The notes below the pieces were generated by a model. That model worked only from the letters and a program-made list of their open reading frames with translations. It did not search any database and had not been told where the DNA came from. DNA of 54,088 nt from a virus (lineage: Duplodnaviria > Caudoviricetes). Positions 7,702 through 11,197 of this stretch are shown piece after piece. The translations under genes and the position numbers were made by a program. Each line of letters starts with the position of its first letter. Within the stretch, counting starts at the first letter, position 1. The stretch lies in the IMG/VR virus record IMGVR_UViG_3300023199_000101, positions 1 through 54,088 of that record, one strand, 5' to 3'.

Positions 7702-8400
7702 ATGACAAGTGTAGATTTCATTGCAAAACATCTCCCCCTCGAAAATTTAGGGATTCCTATTTTGCCTGTTAATGATGTTTGTTCATTTACTGGCAAAACA
7801 ATCAAAGAGGGAGTTTACAACAAAAAACTTATCAAAAAAACATTTACCGACCATGCTTACTTGAGATACCCTTCCGATTATTCAAGTGTTGAAGCTGCGC
7901 TATGTATAGAAGCTGTAATCCCAGCAAAAAAGGGTTTAAGTTCGCTTAGAAATTACTCATACTTTGTATCTGAAAGGAATTTGAAACTATTGAAGCGTGA
8001 GGAAATATTAGACTTGATGCTGAATATTAATGAAAGCCCGTTTGTGCTTGCTGTAACTTATTCAAATAAGAAACACACGTCTTACAAAACAACGCTTAAC
8101 TATAATATCGAAAAATTTGTCGTTACAACTGATGTTGGCGATGTGTTAATTGAGCGAAAAGGGTTACTTGAGATACTACCAATTTTGCAAAACTGGTATA
8201 CTGTTGTTGATGGCAAGCAATGTACAGCATCACAACCCACTTATTTCACAAAATCAGAAATATTGAGCGGGAGCGAAAATATTAAGCGTATCCGGCAATA
8301 CGGAATTGAAAAATATTGCCTTGAAAATGCGGAAATTGAAAAATACCGAAATACGGCATTTCTTAATCTTATTGTTCACATTCTTAACAAAAAAGTCTAA
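7702..8400 (+). CDS. csf1: Type IV CRISPR large subunit Csf1 (Cas8-like)
   Basis: Degenerate N-terminal Zn-finger with TFTD, PFVLAVTYSNKKH and FTKSEILSG motifs; first gene of the csf operon. Confidence 0.75.
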   Translation: MTSVDFIAKHLPLENLGIPILPVNDVCSFTGKTIKEGVYNKKLIKKTFTDHAYLRYPSDYSSVEAALCIEAVIPAKKGLSSLRNYSYFVSERNLKLLKREEILDLMLNINESPFVLAVTYSNKKHTSYKTTLNYNIEKFVVTTDVGDVLIERKGLLEILPILQNWYTVVDGKQCTASQPTYFTKSEILSGSENIKRIRQYGIEKYCLENAEIEKYRNTAFLNLIVHILNKKV

Positions 8401-9638
8401 TGCTTAGAGTTAATTACAAAGCGGAAGCCTTACAACAAATTCATACTGGCGCAGACGAAAATCATGGCACGGTAACATTGTTGCGACGTGAAAAACGTCG
8501 GCTGAAAACGCCAGTTAAATTCACATCGAAATTCAAGTCTGAACAGGAGCGAAGAGAAACGTTGCTTACTATTTTGTTGGCAGTTTACAAGTCTATTGAC
8601 AAAGATCTGAAAGCAAGCAACTATGGTTTTTACGATGCGTATGCCAGCAAAATACTTGCTGCAACAGGCGTCAAAACTCGCTACGAGTTTTTGACTGAAC
8701 TATGCAAATCTTGTGGTGTTCGCACCATTGTGGAAAAAGACAATAGTGCAGTAATAAAAGCAATTGATATTTTTTCAGACGAAGAGTTATTACAGACTAT
8801 CCGCAGCGAACATCAATACCTAATGTTGATGCTTCGTGACCATGTACAGACGAAAGGGAAGTCAGATTTTTTCAACCAGGACAATTCGGCTTCAAGCCTT
8901 ACTTTTGAGAAGCATTTTGAGTGGATCCCCTTCATTGCAGGAAACTCCGTCAGGGGTGTCATACGCCGCATCGTGATGCGTGACTTCCTTGAGCGCATTG
9001 GCGTAAACAAAGAATCGTGGGGCGTAGAAAAAGACATGTATCACCAGTTGATGACAGGGGGCAACATTACTAGCTCAACAGCTTTTGAAGATATTGAACT
9101 TAGGGAAAAATATATTTTCCTCTGTCCCATGATTGGACTTCTGGGAAGTGCAATTGGCAATATGACCATTCAGGGCAGCATGAAAACTGGGGCTTTGCGC
9201 CCAATGTGCAAGGAACATGGGAACGGGGATGTTTCATTTTGGGAAACCATTGGAAGGGCTTTTGGCACACGTTCGGACACATCAAAGACGGAGCGTGACA
9301 TTCGTATTGATCAAGCTGAAACAGATGACAAGTCAGCAAATCAGATGAAATATGAATTTGAAGTATTTAATACAGGCACCTTGTTCGATGGTGATTTTGT
9401 GCTGGTGTCAGATGACAAAACATTGGTAAGTGCCTTTTGGTATGCCTTGAAATTGTGGAAAGAATTTGGTTTTGTTGGTGGAAATTCTGCAAGAGGTTAT
9501 GGGAAAATGGACCTTCAAATAGATATTCCCGAAAGTGCAGAAAAAATGTACTTGGAGCATATTGAAAATGTGAAAAATGATGCACTTGATTTTTTTGCAA
9601 TACCAAGAAAACAGGCATTAAAAAACGTATTGGCATGA
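8400..9638 (+). CDS. csf2: Type IV Cas7-family backbone Csf2 with internal Cas11-like helical insertion
   Basis: IPFIAGNSVRGVIRR, LMTGG, PMIGLLG, QMKYEFE, VGGNSARGYG glycine loop; about 120 extra helical residues after the first strand. Confidence 0.85.
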   Translation: MLRVNYKAEALQQIHTGADENHGTVTLLRREKRRLKTPVKFTSKFKSEQERRETLLTILLAVYKSIDKDLKASNYGFYDAYASKILAATGVKTRYEFLTELCKSCGVRTIVEKDNSAVIKAIDIFSDEELLQTIRSEHQYLMLMLRDHVQTKGKSDFFNQDNSASSLTFEKHFEWIPFIAGNSVRGVIRRIVMRDFLERIGVNKESWGVEKDMYHQLMTGGNITSSTAFEDIELREKYIFLCPMIGLLGSAIGNMTIQGSMKTGALRPMCKEHGNGDVSFWETIGRAFGTRSDTSKTERDIRIDQAETDDKSANQMKYEFEVFNTGTLFDGDFVLVSDDKTLVSAFWYALKLWKEFGFVGGNSARGYGKMDLQIDIPESAEKMYLEHIENVKNDALDFFAIPRKQALKNVLA

Positions 9639-9811
9639 AAAAAATAACCAACAAAGATGTTTACACAAGCGCTGTTGAGCGCTTAGAATTCACATTTAAA
9701 GAATTTGATCTGGAATTGGAGATGCAACCAGACGAAGTGTTAAGACTAAAGCAAATAACAGGACTAGCGGAAATGTTTTCAGATGAGGAATTTTCAAAAA
9801 GCTGGGAATGA
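9635..9811 (+). pseudogene. 58-aa chimeric remnant: IbrA-like N-terminus fused to IbrB (ParB-like) C-terminus
   Basis: Translates MKKITNKDVYTSAVERLEFTFKEFD-LELEMQPDEVLRLKQITGLAEMFSDEEFSKSWE; ATGA overlaps at both ends. Confidence 0.7.
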
Positions 9812-10560
9812 CAGATTACTGGAAGTCATATTATTTAGCGCATTCAAGAACAAGACTATTTAAGAAGAGAATAGATCTTGCCTTTAAAGTTATTGACAAT
9901 TTTGTGTCAGTTTGCGACAAACCATATATTGGATTCAGTGGTGGCAAGGATAGTTCAGCTATGTTGTTATTGTATCAAAAACTTGGCTTAACAAATATAC
10001 CTGTTTTTACTCAGTCAGATGATTTTGACTGGGATTTTAAAAAACCGACATGTTTAAAAATAATAGGCCAAACTGGATTTTTTGATTACACATACAATGT
10101 AGCAAATGAAAGCGTTTTAGAACAGGTGGGTAATATGGATTTCCTTTCAAATGATTACATTAATATAGACAATGTGTTTTACGGGGAAATTGAAAAGTTC
10201 TACAAAAGTAGAGATCTGAACGGATATTCAATAGGGATAAGAATACAGGAAAGCCGAAAAAGGAAATTTAGGGTATTAACCGCAGGGCAAGTTTCAAAAA
10301 CAAAATCAGGTTTGTGGTCATGCTATCCAGTTGCAAACCTAAGGGGCGAGGATGTTTTTGCTTTAATTATATCTAATGACTTACCATACATGGATGTTTA
10401 CGACAAACATGGCGATAAAGCGCCTCACGAAATTAGGTTCAGTTGGGTAACAAATCCTGAACTATTTCACAGGGGAGTATTAGTTTGGCTAAAACAAAAT
10501 TATCCTGATCGATACAATAAATTAATTGCCATTAATAAAAAAATAAAATGTTATGTCTAA
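9808..10560 (+). CDS. cysH: CysH-like PAPS-reductase family protein (type IV-B associated)
   Basis: FSGGKDS PP-loop, GIRIQES.KR, YPVANL..EDVFA.I motifs. Confidence 0.85.
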   Translation: MTDYWKSYYLAHSRTRLFKKRIDLAFKVIDNFVSVCDKPYIGFSGGKDSSAMLLLYQKLGLTNIPVFTQSDDFDWDFKKPTCLKIIGQTGFFDYTYNVANESVLEQVGNMDFLSNDYINIDNVFYGEIEKFYKSRDLNGYSIGIRIQESRKRKFRVLTAGQVSKTKSGLWSCYPVANLRGEDVFALIISNDLPYMDVYDKHGDKAPHEIRFSWVTNPELFHRGVLVWLKQNYPDRYNKLIAINKKIKCYV

Positions 10561-11197
10561 TTACAAAATCACATTCCAAATAAAAACCCCTGTATCATTT
10601 CAAGATACTATTATGTTTGACGGCATAGTTGCTTATGCCTACGCACAAGATCAGATGAAAGGAGTGCGTGGGCAGGCGCAAAAACTAAGCTATTCAAAAG
10701 ATGAATTGATAGATTTTTCTTCTATGCCAATCATAAAGCATGAAGATGGTTATTTTATGGCATCGTGGATGTTCTACGAAATGGATGAAATGGTAGAGTA
10801 TTTGGGCAGTTGGAAAAAACGCTGGGCAAATGAACATGATCACCTTTCCGACTTTGGAAAGCAAAAAAGAAAAGTTAGAGTTGATGCTGCCAACTTCAAG
10901 TCTTACGATGTGCCTATTCGATTAGTAGATATTTCTGAATGCTGGTTTTTTTTTCAATCTCAAAATGTGCAGGAGGTCGAAAGGCTTCTGAGTAAGCACG
11001 TTGTAGGTATTGGAAAAAAAATAGCACAGGGAAACGGATTGATTAAAAGCTTTGAGATTGAGGAATTACAACACAATCCCTTTGACGAACTCATACGCCC
11101 AATTCCTACTATTAAGCGAGGTGATAATGTTAGGTTTACGGGCTATTATCCACCATATTGGATGTCCGAAAATCAAGGTTTTTGTTTGGTCTATTAA
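10553..11197 (+). CDS. csf3: Type IV Cas5-family subunit Csf3
   Basis: KTPVS...MFDGIVAY, FKSYDVP, IGKKIAQGNG.I, RPIP and GYYPPYW motifs. Confidence 0.85.
   Translation: MSNYKITFQIKTPVSFQDTIMFDGIVAYAYAQDQMKGVRGQAQKLSYSKDELIDFSSMPIIKHEDGYFMASWMFYEMDEMVEYLGSWKKRWANEHDHLSDFGKQKRKVRVDAANFKSYDVPIRLVDISECWFFFQSQNVQEVERLLSKHVVGIGKKIAQGNGLIKSFEIEELQHNPFDELIRPIPTIKRGDNVRFTGYYPPYWMSENQGFCLVY

Follow-up and report, generated by a model that had tools for sequence, protein, structure and literature searches.

The linear IMG/VR virus record IMGVR_UViG_3300023199_000101 (54,088 bp; "the window" hereafter denotes this whole stretch) carries at 7702-11197 an operon that appears to encode a variant type IV-B CRISPR-Cas effector module. 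In this module a complete Cas11 small-subunit domain is predicted to be nested inside Csf2, the Cas7 backbone protein, after the first hairpin of the Cas7 fold. With moderate confidence we favor the view that a temperate tailed phage, probably with a Bacteroidota host, acquired the locus horizontally as an accessory island, and that this island comprises an effector module without array, adaptation module, Cas6, helicase or nuclease, whose RNA-bound Csf filament and CysH-like enzyme would serve prophage conflicts. All absences of genes and arrays given below refer to this 54-kb record, the completeness of which was estimated at 84% by CheckV. The operon and the nested domain are laid out as follows:

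7702-8400, plus strand: csf1 (ORF1), 232 amino acids
8400-9638, plus strand: csf2 (ORF2), 412 amino acids
approximately 8541-8861, plus strand: Cas11 domain within csf2, residues 48-154, after the first beta-hairpin
9635-9811, plus strand: mini ORF (ORF3), 58 amino acids
9808-10560, plus strand: cysH-like gene (ORF4), 250 amino acids
10553-11197, plus strand: csf3 (ORF5), 214 amino acids

The Csf proteins and the Cas11 domain within Csf2

The five open reading frames (ORFs) overlap by 1, 4, 4 and 8 nucleotides at the junctions TAATG, ATGA, ATGA and ATGTCTAA, and the GC content of 7676-11197 is 37.0%, compared with 51.5% for the remaining record. The lowest value among 175 equally long segments elsewhere is 46.5%, which gives the island a z-score of -6.5. 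An initial annotation of this DNA had described an AT-rich, translationally coupled plus-strand operon csf1-csf2-(mini ORF)-cysH-csf3 at 7702-11197, and our analysis recovered this layout with all five ORFs in place.

ORF2 is identified as Csf2 on the basis of both profiles and a predicted structure. It was matched by the PADLOC model typeIV_Cas7 (E 5.4e-41, residues 174-398) and by Pfam RAMPs (25.9 bits, above the cut-off), and the best Protein Data Bank (PDB) matches of its AlphaFold2 model (predicted local distance difference test, pLDDT, 83.8) in Foldseek were the type IV-A Csf2 8rc3_D (6.6e-10) and the type IV-B Csf2 7jhy_a (7.7e-9). In the model, strands at residues 2-10 and 30-42 are followed by a seven-helix bundle (48-151) and by a RAMP core of the RNA recognition motif (RRM) type starting at residue 168. 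Two PADLOC type IV Cas11 models match residues 48-154 (Cas11_1_IV with E 2.3e-9, residues 51-148), and hhalign aligned the insert profile, built from 47 long Csf2 proteins, along 102 columns to the profile of 22 stand-alone type IV-B Cas11 proteins, with a probability of 98.5% and an E of 3e-15. When compared with canonical Csf2, residues 2-42 aligned to positions 4-44 (97.6%) and residues 173-403 to positions 47-289 (100%). Since canonical Csf2 is thus aligned on both sides of the insert, the arrangement is best described as a domain insertion and not as a head-to-tail fusion; a simple N-terminal Cas11-Csf2 fusion was rejected, as residues 2-42 correspond to the Csf2 N-terminus. The Cas11 that characterizes subtype IV-B is therefore encoded here within csf2 as a nested domain and has no gene of its own. 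Its presence, on which PADLOC, the AlphaFold2 model and hhalign agree, had been overlooked in the initial annotation.

For comparison, 79 related loci (designated by L numbers) were fetched and their ORFs were labeled through BLASTP comparison with the window, L001 and L002. L047 duplicates L001, and 28 of the loci are located on IMG/VR viral contigs. Long Csf2 proteins of about 400 amino acids form 112 clusters at 90% identity, and a profile search of 1.84 billion representatives gave 193 proteins at E <= 1e-30. By our own count, 52 of the best 150 of these 193 representatives at 50% identity were long forms of full length that aligned in one stretch, while most canonical Csf2 among the matches listed aligned in two stretches. 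A tblastn search with Csf2 against 50,697 GenBank phage records gave no match, and Foldseek against BFVD gave none at E <= 0.001. In PLSDB, 48 plasmids matched the Cas7 part alone, none of them covering at least 80% of the query. It appears that the long-Csf2 form marks a large and widespread clade, so far only metagenomic, in which cysH is usually the gene next after csf2. Two unusual architectures were also observed among the fetched loci: a 409-residue ORF in L056 (4053-5282) whose first 150 residues match Csf1 and the remainder Csf2, either through a fusion or a frameshift, and 417-residue proteins in L031 and L032 (5494-6747) that combine the Cas7 part with an N-terminal extension unlike the Cas11 insert.

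ORF1 is assigned to Csf1, the Cas8-like large subunit of type IV systems, by the hidden Markov models (HMMs) Csf1_0_IV of PADLOC (E 3.9e-24, residues 1-227) and TIGR03114 (E 2.6e-13). Similarly, ORF5 is assigned to Csf3, the Cas5 of type IV, by Csf3_0_IV (E 2.3e-32) and TIGR03116 (E 1.4e-13), and it is 48% identical to the Csf3 proteins of L007, L035 and L003. The gene identities given in the initial annotation were thereby recovered with PADLOC, NCBIfam and Pfam HMMs for csf1, csf2, cysH and csf3, and for Csf2 also with the AlphaFold2 model and Foldseek. The search for RAMP folds that had been set beforehand as a test for 8400-9638 and 10553-11197 recovered them in both genes, for Csf2 by HMM and structure and for Csf3 by HMM only. 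The same annotation had noted that the zinc-finger cysteines of Csf1 are largely lost. This is accurate, as only one of the four positions of the CxxC...CxxC zinc knuckle is kept (C27), the others being T30, S62 and A65. Of 52 distinct Csf1 sequences, 30 have the complete set of four cysteines, and the first cysteine alone is kept by the window Csf1 and 21 others. With the loss shared by 22/52 distinct sequences, it therefore appears to be a trait of a clade and an old, stable state.

The CysH-like enzyme, the mini ORF and module exchange

The product of ORF4 matches Pfam PAPS_reduct (PF01507; 32.9 bits with a cut-off of 22.5) and carries an intact SGGKDS PP-loop motif at residues 44-49. Residues S44, G46, K47, D48, S49, G143, R145, E148, R152, Y198 and R210 are invariant in 29 CysH-like sequences, as is the GxRxxES..R motif. 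There is no conserved catalytic cysteine, and the C-terminal Cys248 is replaced by N, S or other residues in relatives. These features agree with the published description of CasCysH as a protein with an SGGxDS PP-loop and without a catalytic cysteine (PMC8175902, section 7). The AlphaFold2 model has a pLDDT of 92.6. Its Foldseek neighbors, with moderate TM-scores of 0.5-0.6, include the tRNA thiolase TtuA (1.5e-7), phosphoadenosine phosphosulfate (PAPS) and adenosine phosphosulfate (APS) reductases, the PAPS domain of FAD synthase, TilS and GMP synthetase; all of these are PP-loop enzymes acting via adenylated substrates, and TtuA, PAPS reductase, TilS and GMP synthetase adenylate nucleobases or nucleotides. 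The protein thus looks like a competent CysH-like (CasCysH) enzyme of the PP-loop ATP-pyrophosphatase fold. A predicted complex of Csf1, Csf3 and CysH, with CysH as the partner, had a score of 0.26, the mark being 0.32, and counts neither for nor against such a complex. Relatives of the window cysH were limited to four other clusters with 76, 42, 41 and 27% identity, and none was found in IMG/VR.

Among the fetched loci, the canonical ones follow the order csf1-cas11-csf2-csf3-cysH (e.g., L002 and L023-L027), and the nested-Cas11 form was found in 31 loci. In these 31, the gene next after the long csf2 is a PP-loop cysH in 16 cases and an unrelated protein of about 220-250 amino acids in five. 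In the rest, csf3 comes next (one locus), an unlabeled gap precedes csf3 (three), the contig ends or nothing is recognized (five), or the order is different (one). The initial annotation had pointed to cysH sitting inside the operon here. Its position between csf2 and csf3 stands, but with 16/31 loci sharing it the arrangement is a trait of the clade and not a peculiarity of the phage.

The closest relative is L033, with Csf2 86% and Csf1 74% identical to those of the window. In blastn, window positions 7676-9613 correspond to L033 positions 493-2429 at 77% identity; homology is confined to this segment and both flanks differ. The dN/dS (nonsynonymous to synonymous substitution) ratios in this comparison are 0.03 for csf2 and 0.095 for csf1, with dS saturated, and both genes are under strong purifying selection. 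Because the homology ends at 9613 and the flanks and cysH are different, the csf1-csf2 pair and the downstream enzyme seem to have been exchanged as modules. The slot after csf2 and the genes added to related loci include the following:

L001 7256-7963, L048 2017-2715, L054 1042-1740, L008 7299-7958, L018 6783-7529 and L044 1638-2009: slot protein without a PP-loop
L005 9471-12453, L022, L063, L065, L012 8071-12446, L013, L049 8021-10755 and L059 4186-7845: IbrA-like and ParB-like genes

The slot protein of the six loci in the first line has no PP-loop and gave no sequence match in Pfam or the PDB. It lies near viral clusters in the ESM Atlas; in the named clusters, members of the DpdA (17%) or TGT (16%) families make up a minority, with TM-scores of 0.74 and 0.68, an observation that we treat as a lead only. 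The eight loci in the second line are related type IV-B loci with intact IbrA-like (PAPS_reduct plus DUF3440) and ParB-like genes, Pfam ParB_N being matched in L005, L022 and L065. Six of the eight also have a GNAT-like acetyltransferase gene, which is not present in L059 and L065. The IbrA, ParB and GNAT genes, accompanied by further genes of unknown nature, either follow csf3 or separate it from cysH.

These loci also bear on the mini ORF. Its residues 1-25 can be aligned, starting at residue 1, with the N-terminus of the IbrA-like proteins, and the match ends just short of their PP-loop (local alignment with the L005 protein: score 60, z 10.4, reached by 0/500 shuffles). Residues 26-58 match, at 56-70% identity, the C-terminal tail of ParB_N (IbrB-like) proteins of about 200 amino acids (score 111, z 20.6 with the L065 protein), which are encoded directly upstream of cysH in L065, L022, L063 and L005. 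This tail is very strongly conserved across many metagenomic fragments. In L005 the gene order is ibrA-like, GNAT, parB-like, cysH. If everything between codon 25 of the ibrA-like gene and the final 33 codons of the parB-like gene were deleted in frame, exactly the layout of the window would result, including the ATGA overlap with cysH. Our comparison therefore identifies the mini ORF as an in-frame deletion scar of an ibrA-like/parB-like pair. This corrects the initial annotation, which had listed a mini ORF within the operon, on the evidence of local alignments with shuffles and of Pfam domains in the partner proteins. The window does not belong among the phages and prophages with IbrA/IbrB-like pairs (PP-loop/DUF3440 plus ParB_N), since of the deleted pair it keeps only the 58-residue chimera of both ends, i.e., the first 25 residues of one partner and the last 33 of the other. 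The scar retains ATGA coupling to both csf2 and cysH, and it may persist because it couples translation from csf2 to cysH. The possibility of a conserved small gene was rejected, as 22 other small-protein matches cover the ParB-tail half alone and none covers both halves. Pfam gave no match on the mini ORF, 0/31 nested-form loci have a similar one, and a search for closer cysH relatives did not yield the undeleted ancestor.

Carrier phage, island borders and missing components

The borders of the island and the genes that characterize its carrier are listed below:

7600-7701, plus strand: upstream island edge, a T-rich leader; GC falls from 0.57 to 0.36 at about 7600
11198-11600: low-GC tail; GC 0.35-0.45 until 11600, then 0.61
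911-2128: integrase gene
6795-7553: gene upstream of the island, matching PHROG 7838, labeled 'exonuclease'; read as an annealing-protein gene in the initial annotation
13044-14561, minus strand: large terminase gene
21809-25456: tape-measure protein gene

The low-GC tract spans approximately 7600 to 11600. A single terminator-like hairpin is found in the upstream leader (7606-7624), and the tail, in which no RNA or gene family was recognized, contains a 68-residue cysteine-rich ORF (11377-11583) without a homologue in the fetched related loci. Just upstream of this ORF, a 27-nucleotide stretch (11355-11380) has a 93% identical counterpart in L036, located about 220 nucleotides past csf3 (E 0.001, from a search of small size), a likeness that is due either to chance or to a common regulatory motif. 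Direct repeats bracketing the island were sought in the record and none was found. In L007, a perfect 41-bp direct repeat (about 5226-5266 and 8885-8925) encloses the entire csf operon and is a copy of the 3' end of the upstream gene, as would be seen with an inserted cassette.

Apart from the integrase, the large terminase and the tape-measure protein, the record encodes a prohead protease, a DnaB-like helicase and a replication initiator. On the basis of these proteins, the carrier is identified as a temperate tailed phage by gene content. The best matches of the terminase, at 39-45% identity, belong to phages of Croceibacter, Riemerella, Chryseobacterium and Cellulophaga, and the nearest cellular carriers of the same Csf2 type are a Bacteroidales and a Candidatus Kapaibacterium metagenome-assembled genome. 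The host of the phage is therefore likely to be a member of the Bacteroidota or a related group.

No CRISPR array was detected in the record by Tandem Repeats Finder, a repeat search and a k-mer scan, or in 80 loci by the k-mer scan; the only two matches of a mini-array scan (L011 and L041) were rejected as coding repeats. In six-frame HMM searches of the record, Cas1, Cas6 and Csf4/DinG were not found, and Cas2 gave only a sub-threshold match of 12.3 bits inside the tape-measure gene. The statement of the initial annotation that cas1/2, cas6, dinG and an array are absent from the window is consequently upheld for this incomplete record, and within the same bounds the locus shares the subtype IV-B trait of having no dinG/csf4, cas6/csf5, array or adaptation genes.

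Some further features of the record lie outside the island. Near the integrase gene, positions 196-279 match Rfam tmRNA_permuted (57.3 bits, above the gathering score) and resemble the 3' T-arm and acceptor end of a transfer-messenger RNA (tmRNA), with a tmRNA 5' start about 20 nucleotides further on. ARAGORN called no tmRNA there, and the site is possibly the phage attachment site or host flank. Tandem 22-bp repeats of the GGGGGTATAAATGTACGATTAA type occur at 18689-18776 (four copies) and 48385-48444 (two to three copies), and each of these two distant arrays is followed by a TAATAATACAAGAG-type repeat; they are perhaps regulator-binding sites or origin iterons. Paired promoter-like repeats of 20 nucleotides (AAAACTTGACATTTTCTGAA, with a variant 32 nucleotides later) are identical at 31303-31354 and 53977-54028, 22.6 kb apart. 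Finally, a 1482-residue ORF (39767-44215) with at least 11 repeat copies of a period of about 87-93 nucleotides and a single weak PHROG match probably encodes a repeat-domain tail or fiber protein.

Proposed role, alternative explanations and relation to known systems

The role proposed here builds on the features observed in this analysis, namely the five genes and their families, the nested Cas11, the scar, the intact PP-loop, the purifying selection and the membership in the clade. The type IV-B complex has been described as heterogeneous RNA bound by a filament of Csf2 and a minor filament of Cas11 (excerpt of PMC7937560). By analogy with the solved type IV-B and IV-A complexes, Csf2 would polymerize along RNA, Csf3 and the zinc-less Csf1 would cap the filament, and the Cas11 domain present in cis on each Csf2 would build the minor filament with a fixed 1:1 stoichiometry. 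No CRISPR array encodes this RNA in the record; it would be a borrowed host CRISPR RNA (crRNA) or a non-CRISPR RNA. In the most speculative step, the CysH-like enzyme would use ATP to adenylate or otherwise modify a nucleic acid or nucleotide presented by the filament; CasCysH has been proposed to be an ATP alpha-hydrolase (PMC8175902, section 7). The outcome, also speculatively, would aid the prophage against host defence or rival mobile elements. The suggestion of the initial annotation that hijacked crRNAs or a phage non-coding RNA are used with CysH as the effector corresponds to hypotheses published earlier (PMC8175902, section 7).

A number of observations weigh against this interpretation. 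Csf1, Csf2 and Csf3 scored 50.2, 29.5 and 51 bits, far under the NCBIfam equivalog cut-offs of 140, 130 and 140 bits, and by that bar they appear to be divergent members and not equivalogs. With its zinc knuckle lost, the Csf1 large subunit may act differently or less well. The cysH of L033 is quite different from that of the window (57 bits), so that CysH was apparently not inherited together with csf1 and csf2, and in six distinct related loci the cysH slot is filled by the non-PP-loop protein; both facts argue against a tightly co-adapted CysH-Csf interface. As far as the RNA partner is concerned, no Rfam family was detected in 7400-12100 at a permissive threshold, and a flank comparison of 20 long-Csf2 loci revealed no common non-coding element, except in pairs of near-identical loci and for one repeat within L007. 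The predicted RNA fold of 11195-11400 is unremarkable, its z-score being only -2.0, and the sequencing runs listed for the record are three DNA runs of one study, of which two may be the source of this DNA, with no RNA run. Furthermore, as the record is 84% complete, an array or additional cas genes could be situated in the missing remainder.

Other explanations of the locus were also considered. The array-less Csf filament could act as a sponge for host crRNAs or other small guide RNAs and thereby disarm RNA-guided host defence in infection or in the lysogenic state, with CysH as an accessory or inactivating the captured RNA. A phage-borne module without array, Cas6 and nuclease would fit such a role, as would the heterogeneous non-CRISPR RNA bound by the solved type IV-B complex and the 1:1 ratio of Cas7 to Cas11, which would suit a constitutive filament former; the idea itself is in print (PMC8175902, section 7). 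However, no direct evidence speaks for it, and it leaves unexplained both the near-constant PP-loop enzyme with its intact active site and the IbrA/ParB/GNAT or other enzymes in the same loci, and we regard it as unlikely. Alternatively, crRNAs of a host or co-resident CRISPR system could be loaded so that DNA or RNA of a rival phage or plasmid is bound and silenced without cleavage, as in type IV-A, with CysH replacing the DinG helicase as the recruited factor. Csf1, Csf2 and Csf3 are homologs of the effector of type IV-A, by which targets are repressed (excerpt of PMC11656645), and a prophage benefits from excluding rivals. Nevertheless, type IV-B is mostly the sole CRISPR system where it occurs (PMC8175902, section 7, citing Pinilla-Redondo), reading of the protospacer-adjacent motif in type IV-A needs Cas8 and Cas5 while the window Csf1 has no zinc knuckle, and Cas6 and a repeat-like sequence were not found in the record, which makes this course quite improbable in our judgment.

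The post-csf2 slot, which holds either a CysH-like PP-loop enzyme or, in other loci, the unrelated protein whose closest named resemblance is to DpdA/TGT base-exchange enzymes, and the frequent addition of IbrA-like, ParB-like and GNAT genes raise another explanation, namely that the Csf filament is not an immune effector but a delivery platform for interchangeable nucleic-acid-modifying enzymes. The phage would then employ the RNA-bound filament, with Cas11 inside Cas7, to have bases or the backbone of RNA or DNA modified, either to mark itself or to sabotage the guides of the host. We consider this, too, an unlikely account. The island could finally be a decaying, non-functional passenger in the course of being lost, in line with the deletion scar, the three missing zinc ligands of Csf1 and the unmet NCBIfam cut-offs. 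Nevertheless, the four main ORFs are intact and translationally coupled, dN/dS against L033 is 0.03-0.1, the cysteine loss recurs in 22/52 distinct Csf1 sequences and is thus old and stable, the catalytic motifs of CysH are invariant, and the deletion is in frame and preserves the coupling to cysH. Because of this sequence constraint, a relic is the least likely of the alternatives and, in our opinion, very improbable. We thus retain the interpretation of an acquired type IV-B effector module with a CysH-like enzyme that would serve prophage conflicts.

The canonical IV-B systems of the Mycobacterium sp. JS623 plasmid (PDB 7JHY) and of the Rhodococcus plasmid pBD2 share with the window Csf1, Csf2, Csf3, Cas11 and a CysH-like PP-loop protein, as well as a mobile carrier and the lack of array, adaptation module, Cas6, helicase and nuclease. 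In contrast to them, the window has its Cas11 nested in Csf2 instead of a separate cas11 gene, its Csf1 is without three of the four zinc cysteines and its carrier is a phage; in pBD2, moreover, the PAPS-reductase gene lies beyond the operon in divergent orientation, whereas in the window cysH lies between csf2 and csf3. A covalent link between Cas11 and Cas7 with fixed stoichiometry is also found in type III-E Cas7-11 (gRAMP), a single giant protein with several Cas7 domains and one Cas11. There is one Cas11 in total in Cas7-11, while in the window every backbone subunit would carry its own Cas11 inserted within the Cas7 fold. Virus-borne csf1, cas11, csf2, csf3 and cysH are likewise present in L002, L023-L027 and the Fuxivirus of Bathyarchaeia (excerpt of PMC10848311), but there cas11 is a separate gene for 108-127 amino acids and the canonical order csf1-cas11-csf2-csf3-cysH is followed, unlike in the window. 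Fuxivirus additionally has a mini-array according to the same excerpt, and none was found in the window record.

Type IV systems have already been seen in prophages and some lytic phages (excerpt of PMC10848311), and excerpts of PMC7038947, PMC10848311 and PMC11656645 report type IV-B of phages and prophages as usually array-less and cysH-linked and already propose both guide hijacking and a sponge function. A Cas11 domain inside Csf2 was not described in the literature searched, although earlier surveys or supplements could list such a variant. The enzyme slot after csf2 and the scar origin of the mini ORF were not found there either, nor was a paper linking IbrA/ParB/GNAT to type IV-B, the nearest being an 'IbrA/B CRISPR/Cas system' listed in a table on a glacial phage-plasmid (excerpt of PMC4490671).

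According to reviews, the function of type IV-B is still unknown (PMC8175902; PMC11656645, excerpt; PMC12669027), and it is the one widespread CRISPR-Cas subtype in this position in them. The long-Csf2 clade gives new handles on it. With the Cas7:Cas11 ratio fixed by the nested domain, reconstitution and structural work should be easier. The presence of different enzymes in the post-csf2 slot across loci suggests that what the system puts out is set by the accessory enzyme, and the recurring IbrA/ParB/GNAT neighbors connect type IV-B with a further phage gene pair that is itself unexplained. If neither guide sequestration nor targeted modification takes place, the locus would be one more divergent, uncharacterized IV-B member; if one of them does, it would represent a new use of CRISPR parts by phages.

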